A DNA stretch of 64,000 nucleotides from Microcystaceae cyanobacterium (GCA_041746575.1 JBGTGT010000113.1:26017-90016); one strand, 5' to 3'. Shown: positions 12,962-34,173, numbered from the stretch's first letter. The notes: generated by a model not told the origin, from the sequence alone. A program made the numbers and translations.

Positions 12962-15475
12962 TTAATCCCCTTGACTCTGATCAATAAAAGTCTGTACTTT
13001 TTGCCGATAATCTCGTAAGGATTGATCTACCCATTCGCGATCTTCACTATTAGCATAAATATGAACTAACGGTTCACCGCCATCAGGTAAGATTAAAACC
13101 CAATTATCATTTTTTGGATTCATAATTTTAACGCCATCGGTTAATCTTAATTGTTCGGGGGTATGAATTTCTAACATATAACGCATCACCGCTCCTTTCA
13201 CTTTCCACGGACAACGAATCGTACAGGATTTATGACAAACTTTGGGGAGTTCTGCGCGCAGTTGCACTAAAGATCGCCCTTGAATCGTTAACATTTCTAA
13301 TAACTTAGCAATACTAAACATGGCATCGAAGCCAGGGTGCAATTTAGGGAAAATAAAGCCGATTTCTCCACTTCCCCCTAGCACTACATTGGGGTTATTT
13401 TGGGCGACCTCCATTAAAGCCGTTGGGTTCGCTTTGGTGCGAATAACACAGCTATCGTGGCGACGGGCAATCTGTTCAACCGCGCTAGACGCATGGACAG
13501 GAACTACCACCGTTCCCTTGGGATTTTCCGTGAGAATGACACTGACCATCAAAGCTGTCAACTGCTCCCCTCGCACGCTCAGCCCTCCTTCATCCACTAA
13601 AATAAACTGTTCTCCGTTGGCAGACACTTGTACGCCTAAATTGGCTTTCAAGACTTCCACCACTTGCCCCAGTTGCAACAAAAGCGTTTCTTTTTCGACA
13701 GGAGACACTGCCGATTGACGGAGACTGGCATTGAGAACAACGGCGTCACATTCAAATTTGGCAAGAATTTGCGGTAAAATTGCGCCTGAAACCCCATAAG
13801 CGTAATCAAGAACGATTTTTGTCTGACTGTTACTGATCGCGCTAATGTTCAATTGCGTTTCAAAGACCTTACGGTAAACCTCAATGACCTGTGCGGGATA
13901 GGACATATCCCCGATGTTTTCTAGTCCCACCCGTCGTAAATCTTCTTTGAAATAAGCTCCTTCGATTTTTTTCTCGATCGATTTAGAGATATTAATCCCT
14001 TTTTCGTCAAAAAATTCAATTAAGATGTAATCTGGGCGGTCTGGATGCGCTCTGGCGTGGACTCCCCCAATGACCCCTAGACGAGGGGCAAGGGTGCGAG
14101 AAATGGGTAAGGCGGTCGCTTGGAGGTTCTGTATATTGACGCCCACCGACATTAAGCCGGCAATCAGGGAACGACTCACCATACGAGAAACCCCGCGTTG
14201 GTCACGGGAAACAATGACTTGAGAACCGATTTTGAGGGTTGAACCGTAGGCTGCACCAAGTTTTACGGCAAATTCTGGGGTAATATCAATATTGGCTAAT
14301 CCGGTGACCCCTCTCTGCCCAAAAAGATTACGGTGAGCCGTGTTTCCCCATATCAAATTAATATTAAGGATTGCCCCTGATTCAATGCGCTTACTTGGCC
14401 AAACTCTGACATTCGGACTAATTTGCGCTTCTTCACCGACGGTAGAAAGGGGTCCAATAACAACCCCTTCTAAAACTTGAGCGCGACGGTCAACCCGAGT
14501 GCCTCTCGCAATGACACAGGCAGCTAAATAGGCTTCATCCCCAATTATCACCCCATTCCAAATAATCGGGCGTTTCAGGTCGGCACCTGCTCCAATGGTG
14601 ACATTGTCCCCAATCACCGTTCCCCCTTCAATAATGACCCCTGCCCCAATCCGACAGTTATCGCCAATAATGGTGGGGGATTCAACGATGGCACTGGGAT
14701 CAATATAGGTATTGTGACCAATCCATAGACCGGGCGACCGTTCAGGATAGGCAACATCGAGTTGCACTTTGCCGTATAAGGCATCATATTGGGCTTCCCG
14801 ATAAGCATCAAGGTGTCCTACATCGCACCAGTAACCCTCCGCAATAAAACCATACATCGGCTCTTCTTTTTCTAGTAATAAAGGAAAAAGATCCTTAGAA
14901 AAGTCACATTCTTCTGAGGAAGGTAGGTAGTCCAAAACGGACGGTTCGAGAATATAAATGCCCGTGTTGACGGTGTCAGAAAAAATTTCACTGGCGGCAG
15001 GTTTTTCCAAAAAACGGCGAATTCTTTGGTCTTTGTCGGTAATGACGACCCCAAACTCAATAGGATTGGGGACACGGGTTAAAACGAGGGTCGCCTTTGA
15101 TTGTTTTTCGTGGTGAAAAGCGATCGCCGCTTGGAGGTTAAAGTCAGTAATACTATCACCACTGATTACGATAAAGGTATCCTTCAACCATTCTTCAATT
15201 TTCTTGACACAACCGGCGGTCCCCAATGGTTGTTCATCTTCTACTGAATAGCGGATACTTAGACCAAATTCTGAACCATCTTGGAAGTAATCCTTCATCG
15301 TATCGGGTAGATAATGCAGCGTTGCAATAACTTCGGTAATTTCGTTTTTTCTAAGAAGATTAATAATATGTTCAGCAATGGGACGATTGAAAATGGGAAC
15401 CATGGGTTTAGGAAGATCACACGTGAGGGGTCGTAAGCGAGTTCCTGAGCCACCTGCCATTAATACTGCCCGCAT
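12962..15475 (-). CDS. Mannose-1-phosphate guanyltransferase-like NTP transferase + hexapeptide repeats + phosphohexomutase-like domain
   Basis: MAGGSGTRLRPLT/PKPMVP, EKP, LbH repeats (IGDNCRIGAG), then LFGQRGVTG PGM-like domain. Confidence 0.9.
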   Translation of the reverse strand: MRAVLMAGGSGTRLRPLTCDLPKPMVPIFNRPIAEHIINLLRKNEITEVIATLHYLPDTMKDYFQDGSEFGLSIRYSVEDEQPLGTAGCVKKIEEWLKDTFIVISGDSITDFNLQAAIAFHHEKQSKATLVLTRVPNPIEFGVVITDKDQRIRRFLEKPAASEIFSDTVNTGIYILEPSVLDYLPSSEECDFSKDLFPLLLEKEEPMYGFIAEGYWCDVGHLDAYREAQYDALYGKVQLDVAYPERSPGLWIGHNTYIDPSAIVESPTIIGDNCRIGAGVIIEGGTVIGDNVTIGAGADLKRPIIWNGVIIGDEAYLAACVIARGTRVDRRAQVLEGVVIGPLSTVGEEAQISPNVRVWPSKRIESGAILNINLIWGNTAHRNLFGQRGVTGLANIDITPEFAVKLGAAYGSTLKIGSQVIVSRDQRGVSRMVSRSLIAGLMSVGVNIQNLQATALPISRTLAPRLGVIGGVHARAHPDRPDYILIEFFDEKGINISKSIEKKIEGAYFKEDLRRVGLENIGDMSYPAQVIEVYRKVFETQLNISAISNSQTKIVLDYAYGVSGAILPQILAKFECDAVVLNASLRQSAVSPVEKETLLLQLGQVVEVLKANLGVQVSANGEQFILVDEGGLSVRGEQLTALMVSVILTENPKGTVVVPVHASSAVEQIARRHDSCVIRTKANPTALMEVAQNNPNVVLGGSGEIGFIFPKLHPGFDAMFSIAKLLEMLTIQGRSLVQLRAELPKVCHKSCTIRCPWKVKGAVMRYMLEIHTPEQLRLTDGVKIMNPKNDNWVLILPDGGEPLVHIYANSEDREWVDQSLRDYRQKVQTFIDQSQGD

Positions 15476-23400: not shown

Positions 23401-24276
23401 TTACTGTTCATCGATACGATAGGCGCGAATCATCGCCGGTGTCCCTTGTTCGTCTCCTCCCATGCTTTGTACCTGTTTAAATAGGGAATTTGCTAATTTT
23501 AAACCGGGTAAGTCTAAATCTCCCATACTTTCCTGAACTAAGCGTAAATCCTTAAGAATGTGTTTAATCATAAAGCCGGGGGCAAAATCAGACGTCGCAA
23601 CTTTTTCCCCCAAATTCGCCAAAGCCCAAGAGCCGGCTGCCCCACTACCACAGACGTCTATCATGAGATTAGGATCAAGATTGAACTGTTGCGCCAGTTG
23701 CATTGCTTCACATAAGGCCACCATGTGCAGAGAACAGAGGACTTGATTACAGAGCTTGACCGCTTGTCCGCTACCTTGTGAGCCACAATAAACAATTTTC
23801 TTGCCCATTGCCCCTAATAAGGGTATAGCTTCTTCATAATCAGCTTTTTCGCCCCCCACCATGATGGTCAATGTGCCGTTTTGTGCGCCAATGTCTCCAC
23901 CAGAGATAGGAGCATCTAGAAAGCGCAATTTTTTATCTTTCAAAGAATCGGCAATTTCGAGAACGGCTGAAGTTCCAATGGTACTAAAATCAATGATTAA
24001 AGCACTAGGGTGCGCATGTTCTGCAATTCCGCCTTGACCCAAAATCACCCTTTTAACATCGTCAACATCACTGACGCAAGTACAAATAAGGGCAGTATCC
24101 TCCTTAATAGCTTCAGCAATAGAAGGGGCGAGATTGACGCCATTTTCGGCGGCTTGTTGTACCAGTGGACGGTTTGAGGTACGATTCCAAGCTGAAACGG
24201 GGTAACCTGCTTTAACGAGGTTTTGCGCCATAGGACTCCCCATTACGCCTAATCCGATAAAAGCAACATTTTTCAT
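23401..24276 (-). CDS. 3-hydroxyisobutyrate dehydrogenase / tartronate semialdehyde reductase family
   Basis: FIGLGVMG, DAPISGG, LTIMVGG, catalytic KLCNQ, KDLRL; GGAG SD before ATG at 24276. Confidence 0.9.
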   Translation of the reverse strand: MKNVAFIGLGVMGSPMAQNLVKAGYPVSAWNRTSNRPLVQQAAENGVNLAPSIAEAIKEDTALICTCVSDVDDVKRVILGQGGIAEHAHPSALIIDFSTIGTSAVLEIADSLKDKKLRFLDAPISGGDIGAQNGTLTIMVGGEKADYEEAIPLLGAMGKKIVYCGSQGSGQAVKLCNQVLCSLHMVALCEAMQLAQQFNLDPNLMIDVCGSGAAGSWALANLGEKVATSDFAPGFMIKHILKDLRLVQESMGDLDLPGLKLANSLFKQVQSMGGDEQGTPAMIRAYRIDEQ

Positions 24277-24345
24277 GCTGATTTCTCCCTTTAAATTCAT
24301 CATTTATCAAGATAACAGGGAAAGATGCTATGAAGTCCAGACTTA

Positions 24346-25995
24346 TTAAATAACTAGCAATAAATCAATAAATTGATGCCATGTTAAAGATTCATATCCT
24401 GTTTTATGCTTTAAAAACTTAATTTCTTGAGGGAATAAAGGAGGTTCTCCTACGCTCTGCAAAACCCGATTCATTTCTGCTGAATCGATTAACCCGTCTT
24501 CATTATCATCAATAGGAATAAAATAAGTCACCAATTCATTATAGTTAGTGGTTAAGCGTTGGTGTCGTAAGATTAATTCTCCAAATTCTTCAAAGTCAAT
24601 TTTCCCACTATTATCAAGATCAATACTGTTAAATAAGTCGTTAATTTCAGTATCTAGCAGCGTGTCATGGGCAAGTCTTAAGTAGGTTTTTAATTCTGAT
24701 AGTGAAATTTTTTCATTGCGATCACTATCAATAGCATTAAAAATATATCGGAGGTCTCCTTTAAGTTCAGCACTCGCTTTTTGAAAGAGCAAAAAAGTTG
24801 TTTTTTCTACTATCGCTTCTTGAAGTTGATAGCGAAAACTGACAATAATCTCTTTGGCAATTTGATAACGTTTATAATGTTCTTCAGGGCAAGTAATTGT
24901 ATAAAGTGCAACAGGAACTAGAGAAGGAATCGAATGTTTTACAATGAAAAAAGCACCCATCGTTGTTATCGTAAATGCTAAAGCTAATGGCGGTAACCCA
25001 AGGGGAGCAAAAACCAGAAGTAATTCCCAATGTACCCACGCACAAACGAAAGAGGCTAACAGTGCAATGCCAATACTGCGAGGTAGCGGCGCATAAAAAA
25101 TTCCTCCCAAGGCAATCGCTGTCAAAACTGAGTTCAATTCCCATAATCCTAGATAGACAGATTGTAAGTCAATACCCAGAGCGATCGCTACTATAGCACT
25201 TATCAAAGCCCCCATTAATCCCATTCCTGCACTAATAGGAGAACAGATAAAAACCCCCGTTAGAATTAATAAACTCGAAATCAGGTTTAGACTAAACAAG
25301 ATACTGCCAAAGCTTCTGGGAAAAGAGAATAATAATTGTAAGCCATCTAGCGAAGTAATCGGCGGGCTTATTGGGGGACTTCCTAACTCAAATAATGGCT
25401 GAGGAATATATAATATTGCGCCATAAAAAAGAAGCGTTATTAAATGAAATGGAATCCCTAAAATCGAAATTTTAAAATAGGTTGTAATCCAAACTCTCAA
25501 AGTATTCGCTAAAATAGTGGTTAATATCGCTAAAATAATAACGGCAAATGCCCATAGAGGACTACCGTTTCCATTGCCCCACAAGCTAAATGTTCCGACG
25601 GCTAATCCCCCTAAAGTTCCATTAAAGCCCCAAACGCCATTCCGAATAGCGTCTATATTGACTTTTAGGAAAATAGCGGTTATTGTTGATGCGATCGCTC
25701 CTAATAATCCGCAGAGTCCAACCCAAGGAGAGTGAATAAAAGTTGCCACTAAAAATATTAATCCAGTCAAGGGATTATTGCAAAAAATGACCTGACCTAT
25801 GCCGCGTAATGTAGCATTAATTCCGTCGAAAAAAGAGGATGGAACTAACTGCTCATTTAGCCATTGCATTGTACCTGTAATCGGCAGAAAGCGACGAGTT
25901 GAACTTTGAGCAGGAGCATCCAAAATTTTAGCCAGTAGCGCTTGCAAGGATAAAGATTGATGATGGGGGTTTTCTGTCGAATTTGATTCACTCAT
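24346..25995 (-). CDS. Urea transporter (UT) family channel fused to C-terminal EF-hand domain
   Basis: LRGIGQVIFCNNPLTG and GVWGFNGTL UT motifs, about 10 TM segments, ITCPE; EF loops DSDRNEKISLSE, DLDNSGKIDFEE, DDNEDGLIDSAE. Confidence 0.85.
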   Translation of the reverse strand: MSESNSTENPHHQSLSLQALLAKILDAPAQSSTRRFLPITGTMQWLNEQLVPSSFFDGINATLRGIGQVIFCNNPLTGLIFLVATFIHSPWVGLCGLLGAIASTITAIFLKVNIDAIRNGVWGFNGTLGGLAVGTFSLWGNGNGSPLWAFAVIILAILTTILANTLRVWITTYFKISILGIPFHLITLLFYGAILYIPQPLFELGSPPISPPITSLDGLQLLFSFPRSFGSILFSLNLISSLLILTGVFICSPISAGMGLMGALISAIVAIALGIDLQSVYLGLWELNSVLTAIALGGIFYAPLPRSIGIALLASFVCAWVHWELLLVFAPLGLPPLALAFTITTMGAFFIVKHSIPSLVPVALYTITCPEEHYKRYQIAKEIIVSFRYQLQEAIVEKTTFLLFQKASAELKGDLRYIFNAIDSDRNEKISLSELKTYLRLAHDTLLDTEINDLFNSIDLDNSGKIDFEEFGELILRHQRLTTNYNELVTYFIPIDDNEDGLIDSAEMNRVLQSVGEPPLFPQEIKFLKHKTGYESLTWHQFIDLLLVI

Positions 25996-26069
25996 TTTAA
26001 AATTAGAAATTGAGAATTAATTTAGTTTAGTGTATTATGAAAAGCTTGACTGAGTGCAGGTAATATGTT

Positions 26070-27788
26070 ATGAAACAAGACCAAAGATTATATGGCAAGA
26101 CAATGACTACTTTACCGTTATACCTCCCTAGACCTAGAGAAGCGGAAGGCACTTATTTAAGAATTGTGTCTATTAATGATGTTTACGAAATTAAAAACTA
26201 TCCTTATATTGAAACTGTAATTCAAGGACTGAAGCAAACAGCAGAAGATGCAGTGGTCATTGCTTCTATGAGTGGGGATTTTCTCTCTCCTTGCCTGCTA
26301 ACATCTTTGGATGGTGGGAAATCCATGTTGGATGTTCTTAATGTTGTCAATATCGATTATATTTGCTTTGGCAATCACGAATTTGATATCAATTTAGATG
26401 TCCTGCACGAACGGTTTAAGACCTATCGAGGAAAATGTCTAAACGGCAATATTCCTAACTTATCTATCGTTGATATAACAGGTAATCCTCTGCCCAAATA
26501 CGATCTTGTAAAAATAAAAAAACATCGAGTCGCCTTCGCCGGATTTTGTACCAACAATACTGATATTTTTCGACCGGGAACCAATTTAACAATTCTGCCA
26601 ATTTTTGAGGCTTTAAAACAAGTTTGGACTGAGTGTAAAAATGAAGCAACTATGTTAATTCCACTGACCCATCAAACCATTGCTGAAGATCGGGCATTAG
26701 CAATTCAAATTGCAGAAGATGACGAACTTCGAGGCCATATTCCGATTATTCTGGGTGGCCACGAACATGAAGTTTATATTGAAGAAATCGCCCAAAACTT
26801 TATTGTCAAAGCGGGCTCTGATGCTAAGAATGTTGTAGTGGCAGATGTGTGGTGGACAGCAGAGGATAAAGTACAAAGGGCGGTTCATTTATTACCAGCA
26901 AGTCACTTTGATGCCGATCCCCATGCTCAAATATTCGTCGAAAAAACGCAAAACTTTTTGGGTTCGTTAATAGATGTAGAGATTTTTCAAGTCAAAGAAA
27001 CTATGTCTTCTAAGAGAACACGCTTCCAGCCAGAAAAAGTTGCCTCAACCCTCTGTTCTTATATTAAAAAAAGTTTACAAAATATAAATATCGTTATATT
27101 GCAAGGAGGATGTGTCCGAGGCAATCGTGACTATCAAAAAGATTCATCATTTACCTATGGCGATTTGTTGGAAGAATTACCTTTTGATACGCAAATTGCC
27201 GTGATTAAAGTCCCCGGAAAAGTCTTGCAGGATGCCATCTCTTTAACACGAAGTACACCTGAGCAAGAAGCTCCCAACTTTTTACACGTAGATCTTGATA
27301 CCATTATTGAAGACTATCCCCGTTTAAAAATTGTCAGTATTAACCACGCACCTTTTGACCCTGAAAAGATATACAATGTTGCGATTTATCAATTTTTGCT
27401 GACAGGTTTAAACGAGATTAAGCCTCTGCTAGATTATGTCAATACCCAAGGCAGTATTCCCTCTTTAGAGCAGTGTATTCCGGGGAAAAACTTAATTCTA
27501 GAAGCTTGTATGAAAGATGCTTGGCGAACCCTCGTTAATTTTGAGGAATGGGATAGCAATGGAGATGGAAATATTTCTAAATCCGAACTCGAACAAGCTG
27601 TTAAAAAAGCCTTTGCCTTTCTAGATCAAAACCAAGATGGACACATTTCACCCACAGAGCTGCAAACTGCAATTATCGAAAAAACAGGGAATCGAGATCA
27701 TGGCTTAATTAATATGATGTTTGAGATGCTTGATGCCGATAACGATGGTATGGTGTCAATGGAAGAATTAGCATCTTTAGCGATATAA
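26070..27788 (+). CDS. 5'-nucleotidase-type metallophosphoesterase with C-terminal EF-hands, no signal peptide
   Basis: INDVY, GDFLSP, GNHEFD, LTH, GGHEH; 5'-NT C-domain (GGCVRG..YGDLLEELPF); EF loops DSNGDGNISKSE, DQNQDGHISPTE, DADNDGMVSMEE. Confidence 0.87.
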   Translation: MKQDQRLYGKTMTTLPLYLPRPREAEGTYLRIVSINDVYEIKNYPYIETVIQGLKQTAEDAVVIASMSGDFLSPCLLTSLDGGKSMLDVLNVVNIDYICFGNHEFDINLDVLHERFKTYRGKCLNGNIPNLSIVDITGNPLPKYDLVKIKKHRVAFAGFCTNNTDIFRPGTNLTILPIFEALKQVWTECKNEATMLIPLTHQTIAEDRALAIQIAEDDELRGHIPIILGGHEHEVYIEEIAQNFIVKAGSDAKNVVVADVWWTAEDKVQRAVHLLPASHFDADPHAQIFVEKTQNFLGSLIDVEIFQVKETMSSKRTRFQPEKVASTLCSYIKKSLQNINIVILQGGCVRGNRDYQKDSSFTYGDLLEELPFDTQIAVIKVPGKVLQDAISLTRSTPEQEAPNFLHVDLDTIIEDYPRLKIVSINHAPFDPEKIYNVAIYQFLLTGLNEIKPLLDYVNTQGSIPSLEQCIPGKNLILEACMKDAWRTLVNFEEWDSNGDGNISKSELEQAVKKAFAFLDQNQDGHISPTELQTAIIEKTGNRDHGLINMMFEMLDADNDGMVSMEELASLAI

Positions 27789-27849
27789 ACCGTGTGCCTG
27801 TTCAAAACACTCACTTGTGAGAACAAGGAAGCAACGAGATTTTTTAATG

Positions 27850-28839
27850 TTAGGAAACGAATTGTTTAAAGAGTTGTAAGAACTTTTGAGTATCAACATC
27901 AAAACAGGCATCAACATTAGGGGGGTTTGCCAATTCATCACGCCGATTGCGTAAATCTGCTAAAGATAGCCCTTTGGTAAAACGGCCTTCCGTTTCCACT
28001 ACCATATAAAGGGGTTCTGTTTTTACTAAGCTTGGATCGAGCACAACTGCTATCGCTAAAGGATCATGTAAATAACAGCCATAAAATCCCTCATTATCCC
28101 GATAAAATGCCATATAAATTTCTGTACAATCAGCAATAAACTGAGTGATTTTCGATGGAGAATTCCGTAAATTTTCCTCCACAACTTTACGATGTAAAGG
28201 TGCTTTTATCGCAACATCTAAACCCACCAACGTTAATGGAATACCCGATTCCATTACCAATTGTGCGGCATGGGGATCAACAAAAAAATTAAATTCGGCA
28301 GCAGCTGAAATATTGCCCGGAACATTTACGGCTCCTCCCATAATAATAATACGCCCAATTTTTTTCAGGACTTCGGCATCTTTTTGCAGCGCAGTGGCAA
28401 TATTTGTGAGGGGACCTAAAGCAACAATTGTTAAGTTTTTACCGTATTCCTGTGCCGCATTGAGAAGGATATCAATAGCACTTTCAGGAGAAAGTTTTAA
28501 GGCTAATTCAGGATAACGAGGAGAGCCATTTTTTTCTTGAAAACGGTGTAATTCTCCCAAACCATCCGCACCGTGAATTCCTGCCGCATCAAAGGGAGGA
28601 TTAACTAATGGTTTTTTACAGCCTTTTGCCACCGTTGGCATTTTATTAGGAGCGACAACACTAACCACACGTAAGACATTTTGAGCCGCTTGCTCAACAT
28701 TAATATTACCCGCCAAAACGGTGATCGCTTTCAGATCAATTTGTGGTGAATTTAAGGCCATAATCAAGGCTAAAGCATCATCTACTCCGCCATCAGTGTC
28801 AATAATTATAGGGATCGAGGGATTGGGTAAACTCGCCAT
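27850..28839 (-). CDS. Inosine/uridine-preferring nucleoside hydrolase
   Basis: DTDGGVDD Ca2+-binding signature, HGADGLG, GPLTN, MGG, AEFNFFVDP, LHDP. Confidence 0.93.
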   Translation of the reverse strand: MASLPNPSIPIIIDTDGGVDDALALIMALNSPQIDLKAITVLAGNINVEQAAQNVLRVVSVVAPNKMPTVAKGCKKPLVNPPFDAAGIHGADGLGELHRFQEKNGSPRYPELALKLSPESAIDILLNAAQEYGKNLTIVALGPLTNIATALQKDAEVLKKIGRIIIMGGAVNVPGNISAAAEFNFFVDPHAAQLVMESGIPLTLVGLDVAIKAPLHRKVVEENLRNSPSKITQFIADCTEIYMAFYRDNEGFYGCYLHDPLAIAVVLDPSLVKTEPLYMVVETEGRFTKGLSLADLRNRRDELANPPNVDACFDVDTQKFLQLFKQFVS

Positions 28840-29044
28840 AGTACTCAAAATTTCCTAAAATCTGCTGTATCTGCTTTAATAGAAATATTAATAATTTGAA
28901 GTTTACCATTCAATGGATAGCTAACTCGCCAGCGTGCAATTTTAGGCAGAGTGCTCACCAATTTGTCGTTGGACTCAATCAACTGCCATCGATTCGAGAA
29001 TAGTCCTTAAATCTTGACATTCACACCCGTATTCCCTTAGAGCC

Positions 29045-29261
29045 ATGGAGTACCCCAGAAAAAGCCAGAGAATTACTGGCTCAAGAACGGTAACATGACC
29101 ACCAAACCCCTGAAAAAATGGTTAATCGGGTGGTCAAAGAAGAGCAATCGCAACAACAAGAACTTAATAAAAAAGCACGGAAATTACTAACCCAAGATCG
29201 TCAACACAAACAAAATCTTGACGAAAATATGCTAAGTCGTGCTGAATCCGAACTTCATTAA
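29045..29261 (+). pseudogene. Disrupted small protein with two IF7 (GifA)-like repeats
   Basis: ATG plus an extra G, then STPEKARELLAQER*HDHQTPEKMVNRVV...KKARKLLTQDRQHKQNLDENMLSRAESELH; in-frame TAA at 29091. Confidence 0.55.
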
Positions 29262-32987: not shown

Positions 32988-34173
32988 ATGACTCAACCCT
33001 TGACCAATTTGCCGATTTCTGTATTGCTAATTGACGACCAACCGATGATTGGGGAATCTGTTCGCCGAATGTTAGCGGAGGAAAGCGATATTGTCTTTCA
33101 CTATTGCCGAGATCCGACCCAAGCAATCACTATGGCACAATATACCCAACCAACGGTTATTTTACAAGATTTGGTGATGCCCGATCTGGATGGATTGGTA
33201 TTAGTGCGTTTTTTACAGGCTAAAAATGCGCCAACCCGCCATGTTCCTTTGGTGGTGTTATCGAGTCGTGAAGACCCAGTGATCAAGGTAGAAGCGTTTA
33301 AATCGGGAGCGAATGATTATTGGGTAAAATTACCGGATCCGAAAGAATTCATTGCCCGTATTCGTTATCATTACTAATGCTTAGATTAACTTTCTTAAAC
33401 GTCAAGAAGCAGAAGAAAAATTAAAACAAGAAAATTTAAGATTGAGTGCAGAATTAGAAGTTACTCGCCGTCTGCAACAGATGATTTTACCCAAAGATGA
33501 AGAACTGCGTCAGATTTCGACTTTAGACATTGCCGGTTTTATGGAACCGGCTTCGGATGTGGGAGGAGATTATTATGATGTTTTACAACACGATCAGGCG
33601 GTTAAAATTGGCATTGGGGATGTTACCGGCCCTGGCTTAGAAAGTGGAGTAGTTATGATAATGCTACAGACAGCTATCCGAACATTGATGATGCAAGATC
33701 CCGTAAAGTTTTTAGATGTTATCAATCGAACGATTTATGATAATGTTAAACGCATTAATTCTGATAAGAATTTAACCTTAATTTTGCTGAATTATCAACA
33801 AAATTGTCTTCGTTTAAGCGGGCAACACGAATCTGTTATTGTGGTGCGATCACAAGGAGAGATTGAACTCATTGACACCATTGATTTAGGATTTTCCATC
33901 GGTTTAGACGAAGAAATTATAGATTTTATTGCCGAAAAAGAAATTTACTTAAATACAGGAGATGGCGTTGTTCTTTATACTGATGGCATTACAGAAGCCG
34001 AAAACGAGGTAGGAGAATTTTATGGATTAGAACGATTGTGTGAGGTTATTTCTCAACATTGGTCAAAGCCATCTCAAGAGATCAAAAAAGCGGTGATTGA
34101 AAACCTTAGAAATCATATTGGTCGGCAAAAAGTTTATGATGATATTACCTTACTCATTCTCAAGCAAAAATAA
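32988..34173 (+). pseudogene. Response regulator-SpoIIE/PP2C (RsbU-type) phosphatase, split
   Basis: Receiver 32988-33377; +1 frameshift near 33372 and TAG at 33382-33384 in the linker (INFLKRQEAEEKLKQENLR), which is in frame with the PP2C domain (VGGDYYD, GDVTG, LYTDGITE, DDITL). Confidence 0.8.

Follow-up and report, generated by a model that had tools for sequence, protein, structure and literature searches.

Intracellular Ca2+ in cyanobacteria climbs from about 0.2 to 4 μM upon light-to-dark, temperature, salt, and osmotic shifts, and the signaling mechanisms involved have been termed "virtually unknown" (PMC7065334). The closest described examples of EF-hand Ca2+ sensing in these organisms are NOX5 (including Cylindrospermum csNOX5) and Anabaena CSE. 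In NOX5, a calmodulin-like domain fused to the enzyme acts as its switch, and a cyanobacterial NOX5 has been used as the model of how Ca2+ activates through EF domains (PMC7317449); CSE stands alone as a sensor and has been termed the only known Ca2+ sensor of Anabaena (PMC7065334). Urea channels of the UT/SLC14 family (human UT-A and UT-B, dvUT, Yut; PF03253) depend on their pore threonines: T176 and T338 of hUT-A2 are needed for urea flux, which T176A, T338A, and Q231A impair (PMC11589576; the role of the pore threonines is also covered in PMC12171576). Nucleoside hydrolases of group I, such as C. fasciculata IU-NH and the E. coli enzymes RihA and RihC, are defined by a DxDxxxDD Ca2+ site and a His preceding the last Asp, with two tyrosines of helix alpha-8 needed for purine nucleosides (PMC8910321). 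Here, we describe a cyanobacterial locus that probably shares EF-hand sensing with NOX5 and CSE but would have a hydrolase and a solute channel as its effectors.

The locus lies in a 64,000-nucleotide stretch of DNA (the window) from a Microcystaceae cyanobacterium and comprises three genes: a channel gene, UT-EF (24346–25995, minus strand; 549 aa ORF); an EF-hand 5′-nucleotidase-family gene, NT5-EF (26070–27788, plus strand; 572 aa); and a nucleoside hydrolase gene (27850–28848, minus strand; 332 aa). The ORFs, with three canonical EF loops each in UT-EF and NT5-EF, bear out the initial annotation, which had two EF-hand proteins head-to-head across a 74-bp spacer and a nucleoside hydrolase converging on the pair (IU_nuc_hydro, E 9e-94; tail-to-tail gap of 61 bp). 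UT-EF and NT5-EF are neighbors and account for two of only five ORFs with at least two strict-pattern EF loops in the whole 4.2-Mb genome. An ESM Atlas look-up added nothing to Pfam. The divergent spacer (25996–26069) is AT-rich and would measure 107 bp with translation of NT5-EF from its second Met, the point from which most homologs align. Its one sigma70-like site (26010–26038, plus strand) is not above chance (13 sites found versus 16.2 expected), a promoter and terminator scan gave no signal exceeding chance, and comparison by eye of the spacers at L001, L013, and L017 revealed no obvious common sequence. A HIBADH/tartronate-semialdehyde-reductase-family gene (23401–24303, minus strand; 300 aa) lies 42 bp downstream of UT-EF. 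We rejected it as a fourth member: none of 28 same-family orthologs has a UT, NT5, or hydrolase gene within 1.5 kb, and no other module locus contains a match. The suggestion that this gene could fit the module is thus dropped, and its alternative description as an incidental neighbor stands.

UT-EF joins a UT/SLC14-fold channel (residues ~37–380; Pfam UT, E 1.3e-65) to C-terminal EF-hands. Its AF2 model (pLDDT 86.7) superimposes on human UT-A3 with a Z of 47.9 and rmsd of 2.2 over 338 residues, showing the two inverted repeats and pore helices of the UT fold; matches to known UT channels span Z 43–48, and the repeat-1 pore-helix GQV and the Leu/Phe constriction pairs are shared. The pore, in contrast, is of a threonine-less type. 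By alignment to 4ezc and 8xd7, Gly180 (25456–25458, minus strand) replaces the inner pore threonine (bovine UT-B T172, hUT-A2 T176), Ala338 (24982–24984, minus strand) the outer one (T334, T338), and Ser231 (25303–25305, minus strand) Q231 of the urea relay. The hUT-A2 relay Q231-T338-T176-Q67 therefore reads S231, A338, G180, and Q68, with one residue of four kept. Loss of both Sm threonines is compounded in the window's copy by loss of Q231 and F/Y287; Ser231, present in 2 of the 75 rows of alignment A1, is restricted to this copy and the sequences nearest to it. Among the other urea-recognition residues (V68, Y123, V/I232, F/Y287), V69 and I232 are kept, F124 is conservative, and L287 marks a loss in the window's copy alone. 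The hydrophobic Sm pairs L127/L291 and F179/F341 persist as L128, L291, F183, and F341. Against the TIGR03441 equivalog, UT-EF scores 159.6 bits (cut-off, 274.6), a score that does not separate Thr/Thr from threonine-less types. The window's channel departs at 11 near-invariant columns (median 4), including a unique E286/L287, and this copy, with its extra pore substitutions, may be decaying; undegraded Gly/Ala relatives occur at L135 and L136, and a Thr/Thr paralog at L003. Because the urea-relay residues are absent, the name "EF-hand urea channel" given initially holds for the UT fold and the EF-hands; "urea channel" is probably wrong as anything beyond a fold label. A pore without urea-recognizing residues may therefore pass nucleobases instead of urea, although, since the constriction pairs are unchanged, a bicyclic purine may still not fit. 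A literature search on the dvUT threonines returned nothing relevant.

Pore type and gene context coincide across relatives of UT-EF. In 15 of 15 loci with a Thr180 channel, the gene immediately ahead of it encodes an EF-hand arginase, a urea-making enzyme; the same holds for 0 of 23 channels without Thr180. Of these 23, 21 adjoin genes of nucleotide or purine catabolism, which fall into three distinct sets: NT5-EF (12 loci), another nucleotidase and/or hydrolase set unrelated to the first (6), and purine-catabolism genes (3; guanine deaminase or hpxO-Rieske-puuE-uraH). L197 and L198 have no nucleotide or purine neighbor; at L197, an EF-hand histidine-phosphatase membrane protein is encoded upstream of a Gly/Ala channel. 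In the sample selected solely on the channel, the Thr180 type occurred with EF-hand arginase in 7/7 cases and the non-Thr type with nucleotide or purine genes in 14/16. Two genomes (G188 and G687) bear both channel types, each with its own partners. Non-Thr channels fill 37 of the 75 rows of A1, eight of them with Ser instead of Thr at 338, which could keep urea hydrogen bonding; 106 of 119 further UT rows are Thr/Thr. Seven other alignment columns separate the two types, three of them pore positions. A preliminary quick tree had left the two Gly clades unjoined; in the later tree, the non-Thr channels form a 24-row clade (SH-aLRT 97). Threonine loss is there a single evolutionary event, and the counts of Thr180 against context are consequently not independent. 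P0053 is a candidate for an independent threonine loss.

The arginase-channel pair resembles the trio in channel family, EF tail, and possession of an EF-fused catabolic enzyme, which in the pair lies directly upstream. It differs in keeping Thr180 and in its arginase motifs, which are present in the EF-hand partner; enzyme product and channel type therefore agree on urea. By the tree, this pair is the ancestral state. A NOX5-like gene adjoins it at L195. Library UT-EF and UT-ankyrin fusions (550–1400 aa) combine UT and EF-hands in about half of the 58 scanned, but fall outside the cyanobacterial clade and are nearly all Thr/Thr; from their length and N-termini, our guess is that they are microbial eukaryote proteins. 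FastTree placed a cyanobacteria-dominated channel clade (43/67 rows, support 99) apart from the long, eukaryote-like UT-EF fusions. An origin of the channel inside that group was rejected on this separation, and any transfer could have run in either direction.

These patterns bear on whether UT-EF, its selectivity loosened, still carries urea (or NH3 or water) as the last product of a purine degradation that NT5-EF and the hydrolase initiate. The UT fold is intact, Q68, V69, F71, L128, L291, F183, and F341 are kept, and UTs also conduct NH3 and water (PMC12171576). The window's genome has urease and most of the purine-to-ureide pathway, carrying GuaD, an XdhB-like gene, HpxO, UraH, OHCU decarboxylase, PuuE, and an NCS2 permease. 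However, a single relay residue of four remains in a relay where alanine mutants impair flux, Thr180 is kept in all 15 loci with a urea-making neighbor, and UrtA is already present alongside urease. A search for XdhB and PuuE found neither over cut-off in any of the five other trio genomes, so the purine-to-urea route is not general. The urea link made in the initial annotation thus gives way to the lost relay, these missing enzymes, the pairing of EF-hand arginase with the urea-type paralog, and the UrtA and urease already at hand, and we regard urea conduction by UT-EF as unlikely. With its purine genes, the window's genome could degrade the base, so export would not be needed there. The URC (ribosylurea) route for uracil involves a URC4/DUF1688 gene, which gave 0 matches in the window's genome and also in 0 of 14 controls.

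NT5-EF has the Metallophos and 5_nucleotid_C domains, EF-hands, and the two-domain fold of UshA/CD73-type phosphoesterases. Structural matches to 5′-nucleotidases reach Z 30–32 (about 30–31 for the UshA/CD73/NadN group; PF00149 plus PF02872). D37, D70, N102, H103, H201, H231, H233, and R318 are invariant in 90/90 sequences, and the GNHEFD motif and the C-domain Arg/Phe of the nucleotide site are present. Unlike UshA, CD73, and NadN, it carries three EF loops, lacks a signal-like hydrophobic stretch (maximum 15-residue hydropathy of 0.41 in the first 60 aa, by a crude test), and has NDVY where 5′-nucleotidases usually have D-x-H; Tyr39 takes the place of what is presumably a metal-ligand His in UshA. 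It scores far below every equivalog cut-off. Relatives of the same architecture at 34 to 43% include dinoflagellate and haptophyte records, and a haptophyte homolog is fused to two adenylate-kinase-family domains. This fusion and the adjacent hydrolase are indirect hints that NT5-EF may act on NMPs. A Symbiodinium homolog is labeled "mggB", which we take to be the name of a non-nucleotide phosphatase; a literature search on MggB returned nothing relevant. That label, the variant site at Tyr39, the absence of any ribokinase over cut-off in the window's genome, and the histidine phosphatase at L197 would fit a substrate that is no nucleotide derivative, with NT5-EF an MggB-like phosphatase for another phospho-metabolite or the channel passing ribose or a polyol. 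This is quite improbable given the retained nucleotide-site Arg/Phe, the adenylate-kinase fusion, a hydrolase gene, whole or broken, adjacent in 9 of 10 NT5-EF genomes, and purine clusters that yield no ribose.

The hydrolase is an ordinary group I member, unusual in its context alone. It has DTDGGVDD (residues 17–24) as its DxDxxxDD site, H92, a His preceding the last Asp (H261-D262), and Y245/Y249, and scores below the RihA and RihC cut-offs. As in the purine-capable IU-NH, the two tyrosines fall on the Tyr-x3-Tyr of 1mas, positions occupied by Phe/His in RihA, and the pair occurs in 9/9 NH1 sequences; a literature search on Tyr225/Tyr229 gave nothing relevant. The initial annotation had counted the hydrolase as a Ca2+-site enzyme, and the site is indeed present, but it is mute on Ca2+ regulation because every group I hydrolase binds its catalytic cofactor there (PMC8910321). 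The same paper reports that yeast URH1, of this family, acts on nicotinamide riboside. Such an activity would suit an NAD-precursor route from NMN through nicotinamide riboside to nicotinamide, a planar amide nearer urea in size than a purine, whose single ring might better fit a modestly widened pore; NT5-EF also matches the NadN model, albeit weakly (E 6.5e-10, far under cut-off). We consider this route improbable, as the same channel clade occurs in guanine-deaminase and hpxO/puuE/uraH clusters, the purine-enabling tyrosines are universal among the NH1 sequences, and no NAD-salvage gene was noticed in passing among the neighboring ORFs.

The initial annotation had staked the module on the three genes occurring together elsewhere, and they do recur. 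In a sample of 400 genomes, 10 others carry NT5-EF; all three genes are intact in six of these, mostly co-directional and in three gene orders. NT5-EF has UT-EF beside it in 7/10 (background rate, 22/400 genomes with UT-EF) and a hydrolase gene, whole or broken, in 9/10; the hydrolase occurs without the channel in 4/9 genomes. Intergenic gaps are 10 to 34 bp at L135, L136, and L142. A metagenome scan gave four close NT5-EF loci among 80, and a search run without a positive control did not find NT5-EF in five genomes with the channel in another context. The module is broken at many loci (L001, L008, L009, L014, L138, L141, and L143). All three genes are genuine, and together they make up a recurring unit. 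Frequent decay, and the clustering of other EF-fused genes with UT-EF (the NOX5-like gene at L195, the histidine phosphatase at L197), would agree with EF-hand-fused genes co-traveling on a mobile island without functional coupling. But the trio has stayed together although reshuffled into three gene orders, one of its members, the hydrolase, is devoid of EF-hands, and channels of the same clade are also found with purine clusters and with the NT5b/NH2 set, itself not EF-fused. All this makes mere co-travel very unlikely. The conserved cluster, its EF loops, and the tyrosine pair speak in part for the proposed coupling of nucleotide turnover to solute flux; with urea discounted, the "related small solute" of that proposal survives.

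The calmodulin-like domain of UT-EF (residues 401–546; 24358–24795, minus strand) has three canonical EF loops (423, 459, and 496) and a degenerate fourth, and matches calmodulin with a Z of 13.4 over 143 residues (N-lobe rmsd, 1.3–1.6). The canonical loops of NT5-EF, at 495, 519, and 555, are all C-terminal. The first and twelfth positions of the loops hold D/E in 73 to 75 of 75 channel homologs and in 47 to 50 of 50 close nucleotidase homologs (53–81% identical). Canonical, conserved loops in a calmodulin-like domain are the NOX5 arrangement, and NT5-EF and UT-EF are probably under Ca2+ control. Complex prediction for NT5-EF docking on the channel EF domain scored 0.00 in both runs, giving no answer either way. 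Conserved EF loops combined with a lost relay and a still hydrophobic constriction could also describe a sensor rather than a bulk channel, in which binding of a ligand in the pore, or of Ca2+ at the tail, passes on a signal, with the enzymes producing or removing that ligand. The same EF tail on Thr/Thr paralogs resembling working urea channels, and the lack of a conserved kinase or regulator gene in the trio, leave a sensor with little probability.

Starting from the architecture, clustering, residue patterns, and tree described above, we infer substrates, Ca2+ gating, flux direction, and trigger, and tentatively favor, at somewhat under even confidence, a cytosolic and probably Ca2+-switched module that takes NMP to nucleoside to base plus ribose, the UT-fold channel being permeable to a purine base or a ureide. 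It would be a horizontally mobile accessory for intracellular nucleotide stripping. Cytosolic NT5-EF would strip phosphate off NMPs (most likely AMP, IMP, or GMP), and the hydrolase would then cleave the nucleoside to base and ribose. UT-EF would be a passive channel whose remodeled filter (Thr to Gly, Thr to Ala/Ser, and linked changes at 124 and 234) may admit, in place of urea, a larger planar nitrogen compound (purine base or ureide). It would most likely serve as base exit here and as entry in purine-utilization clusters. The EF-hand domains on the committing enzyme and the channel would subject both to cytosolic Ca2+ transients, the trigger perhaps lying in the removal of AMP, or the recovery of phosphate, when a light-dark change or stress sets off a Ca2+ spike. 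The EF-hand arginase with its Thr/Thr, putatively true urea channel would be the sister module. A possible but doubtful generalization is a cyanobacterial family of Ca2+-triggered catabolic valves, each of them self-contained and made of an EF-hand enzyme with a calmodulin-fused UT matched to its product: arginase with a urea channel, nucleotidase-hydrolase with a nucleobase UT.

Our literature search found no description of the trio or of the arginase-channel pair, and the available parts of two diatom papers hold no statement on an EF-hand urea transporter. Trio and pair offer concrete, purifiable candidate effectors tying Ca2+ to nucleotide and arginine catabolism. Because G188 and G687 each hold a Thr/Thr paralog beside arginase and a Gly/Ala paralog beside nucleotide genes, UT selectivity is directly testable. 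About half of such database "urea transporters" (37/75 in A1) may be mis-annotated. If the doubtful family of valves is real, it would comprise a nucleobase channel of UT fold, a UT gated by Ca2+, and a direct path from bacterial Ca2+ spikes to nitrogen-metabolite release. Gated release of bases may be relevant to cross-feeding on purines supplied by marine cyanobacteria.

The four ORFs lie at the positions given in the initial annotation, and Pfam matches identify them as a HIBADH-family dehydrogenase (23401-24303, minus strand), a UT-family protein with EF-hands (UT-EF; 24346-25995, minus), a metallophosphoesterase/5′-nucleotidase with EF-hands (NT5-EF; 26070-27788, plus), and a nucleoside hydrolase (27850-28848, minus). 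The AF2 model of UT-EF (pLDDT 86.7) superposes on human UT-A3 with a Z score of 47.9, and its residues 401-546 match the whole of calmodulin. The NT5-EF model (pLDDT 90.5) matches UshA/CD73-type enzymes with Z scores of 30-32. Nearby, positions 29045-29261, between the hydrolase gene and pnp, share 71-72% DNA identity with both same-genus genomes and by eye resemble a small ORF broken by a stop; at 32988-34173, a response-regulator ORF and then a SpoIIE-like phosphatase ORF read like one split gene.

UT-EF, NT5-EF, and the hydrolase are a unit. NT5-EF is rare, being found in 1/400 other genomes of a phylum sample and 10/400 of an order sample, and UT-EF in 13/400 and 22/400, respectively. As the initial annotation had proposed checking by gene neighborhood, the trio recurs: UT-EF shares the locus in seven of the 10 NT5-EF genomes and all three genes are intact in six, counts that overstate independence because the carriers are partly related (seven in one family, five in one genus). 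The module is often broken; the hydrolase is frameshifted in G687 and broken in G541 and G662, where the channel is absent nearby, and G567 has the nucleotidase alone. Three gene orders occur, UT>NT5>NH, NT5>NH>UT, and the divergent layout of the window, which is also found in L013; L001 and L017 have the divergent pair. Intergenic gaps are 10-34 bp at their shortest (L135, L136, L142) and reach 867 bp elsewhere. An indirect check paired clusters by identical length of the longest contig and matched 14 of 78 channel clusters to one of 54 nucleotidase clusters; 13 of these 14 channels lack Thr180 (threonine-less), and the contig of the remaining one is not long enough for both genes. The hydrolase is less confined, with 4/9 orthologs elsewhere, one behind a different nucleotidase. 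That the trio functions as a nucleotide-catabolic unit is, in our judgment, highly probable. The tartronate-semialdehyde-reductase-family (HIBADH) gene, offered earlier as either a possible participant or an incidental neighbor, proved to be the latter and was rejected as a member, since 0/28 orthologs in its family lie within 1.5 kb of a module gene. The trio looks acquired because its GC3 (0.29-0.31) is lower than that of six flanking genes (0.34-0.45), its genes have no DNA match in two genomes of the same genus (77% and 92% complete), NT5-EF is absent from 20 and 27 same-family genomes (phylum and order samples), and G026, from another family, has the same layout at 72-83% identity.

Aligned with bovine UT-B and human UT-A2, UT-EF places Gly180 at T172/T176, Ala338 at T334/T338, Ser231 at Q231, and Leu287 at F287. 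Urea is reported to pass along a Q231-T338-T176-Q67 relay, with permeation impaired by alanine mutants (PMC11589576); Thr-to-Val mutants reportedly weaken urea, water, and NH3 flux (PMC12171576), and dvUT is described with the same threonines (PMC4357013). Among the best 150 UT library representatives, 106 of the 119 rows spanning both sites are Thr/Thr. By these residues, threonine-less UT-EF is probably not a urea channel, and we consider it likely that the channel is not urea-selective. Because the channel keeps its constriction pairs as they were, the pore may be too narrow for a purine. The window's UT-EF has 11 departures from near-invariant columns, versus a median of 4, among them the unique E286/L287, and this copy may be decaying; the window's NT5-EF is typical (6 departures versus 5.5).

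Pore type tracks the neighboring genes. An EF-hand arginase (Pfam) lies directly in front of the channel at 15/15 Thr180 loci, versus 0/23 threonine-less loci; among 10 arginase loci checked, eight have complete motifs and two have no match to the first. Twelve of the 23 threonine-less loci adjoin NT5-EF, six adjoin another nucleotidase that lacks EF-hands and/or another hydrolase (∼30% identical to that of the window; one is a remnant only), three lie in purine clusters containing either guanine deaminase or a set of hpxO, Rieske oxygenase, puuE, and uraH genes, and two (L197, L198) have neither nucleotide nor purine neighbors. This count omits two duplicates (L004, L194), three fragments whose pore could not be read (L009, L010, L014), and L201, which is next to a urease cluster and has its pore deleted; in L017, L119, and L202, just one of the two pore sites is visible. 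Among the 24 matches to the channel query only, Thr-type channels accompany arginase in 7/7 cases and non-Thr channels nucleotide or purine genes in 14/16, with one deleted. G188 and G687 carry both pore types, each with its own partners and one copy broken in each genome. The eight columns that discriminate best between the types include the defining site itself and three others in the pore (124, 234, 338). In a 46-row quick tree that retained the two trait columns, the threonine-less channels group in a single clade (24 rows, SH-aLRT 97) that arose from the Thr type. The 23 loci are thus one switch and not independent tests; after that single pore switch come three or more different purine/nucleotide neighborhoods. 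One channel, P0053, sits inside the threonine clade with Gly/Ser at both pore sites, which may mark a second, independent loss of threonine.

The EF-hand arginase directly upstream of Thr/Thr UT-EF, seen in 15 loci including one distant family (L002:6761-9963, L003:5899-9062, L007:8447-11689, L121:7424-10550, and 11 more), is separated from it by 3-32 bp in five gaps measured and looks like half of a pair that releases urea from arginine under Ca2+ control. Near UT-EF in six loci lies a protein of ∼465 aa that matches GATase weakly, among them L113:3147-4544, L007:7036-8439, L195:6466-7860, and L197:7630-9024; its Atlas clusters are labeled "hypothetical."

In NT5-EF, seven putative metal/catalytic ligands and R318 are kept in 90/90 homologs; Tyr39 stands at a position where UshA has His. 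A crude test found no hydrophobic stretch at its N terminus, and its substrate pool should therefore be cytosolic. One haptophyte homolog carries two fused adenylate-kinase-family domains, which points to NMPs as substrates. Another homolog is labeled mggB, a name used for a compatible-solute phosphatase; a literature search on mggB found nothing. Tyr245 and Tyr249 of the hydrolase match Crithidia fasciculata IU-NH, whereas RihA has Phe/His there. This alpha-8 Tyr pair is reported to be needed for efficient purine-nucleoside hydrolysis (PMC8910321). The same source describes Ca2+ as a family-wide catalytic cofactor, so the Ca2+ site of the hydrolase, pointed out in the initial annotation, is no regulatory sign.

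UT-EF and NT5-EF have three canonical EF loops each, and first and last loop ligands are kept in 73-75/75 channel and 47-50/50 close nucleotidase homologs. Only five ORFs in the window's genome have at least two strict EF loops. Both proteins therefore likely bind Ca2+. A regulatory role for the EF-hands seems somewhat favored. Ca2+ in cyanobacteria is reported to rise when light gives way to dark and when temperature, salt, or osmotic conditions shift (PMC7065334), and NOX5, reportedly studied through a cyanobacterial enzyme, is a precedent for an EF-hand-switched enzyme (PMC7317449); one cyanobacterial NOX5-like gene is described as a likely transfer from eukaryotes (PMC3591440). In L195, the gene immediately preceding the arginase-channel pair encodes a NOX5-like EF-hand NADPH oxidase (12979-14988), and L199 has the C-terminal part of one; bestrophin-like and MscS-like genes follow downstream in L195, as in L113. 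Other EF-hand fusions join a histidine phosphatase and membrane region (641 aa; L197:4820-6745, upstream of a Gly/Ala UT-EF) and a SAM-methyltransferase (404 aa; L110:1483-2697, in trio-bearing G026). Outside the window, in its genome, contig C85 (25387-26565) has a transaldolase-like ORF whose C-terminal part contains two EF loops, and in C110 (16997-19296) a calmodulin-like 228-aa ORF overlaps, in a different frame, a 568-aa ORF of no assigned family; together they may be a single EF-hand fusion gene with a frameshift.

The initial annotation had linked the trio to purine breakdown ending in urea. The window's genome is compatible with that route, having guanine deaminase, an XdhB-like gene, HpxO, UraH, OHCU decarboxylase, PuuE, NCS2, urease, and UrtA, but with these genes present a passive urea channel would be redundant or wasteful. 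In five other intact-trio genomes, XdhB and PuuE over the cut-off were each found in 0/5. In those genomes the base is more likely the end product, and a channel would be its exit. No ribokinase over the cut-off was found in the window's genome. Outside the window, this genome has another NCS2 purine permease, divided between two ORFs (contig C40:4092-5416).

All module parts belong to known families, and databases already name UT-EF proteins "urea transporter," some mentioning EF-hands. Our literature searches covered EF-hand urea transporters, arginases, and nucleotidases in cyanobacteria, SLC14/nucleobase transport in bacteria, and diatoms, in a library with few subscription journals; within that scope, no description was found of the trio combination, a bacterial calmodulin-fused UT, or the threonine-less subfamily, and the papers matched for cyanobacterial EF-hand urea transporters all concern eukaryotic algae. 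We tentatively propose, as the likeliest of the readings, a chain against which the unchanged constriction pairs, the possible decay of the window's UT-EF, and the frequent breakage of the module speak. In this chain a Ca2+ rise, for example, at a light-to-dark, temperature, salt, or osmotic shift, would switch cytosolic NT5-EF, an enzyme that would drain NMP pools if it had no such switch. The hydrolase would then free the base from the nucleoside, and the remodeled UT-EF, under the same ion, would pass its substrate, for which we give a purine base or ureide an even chance.
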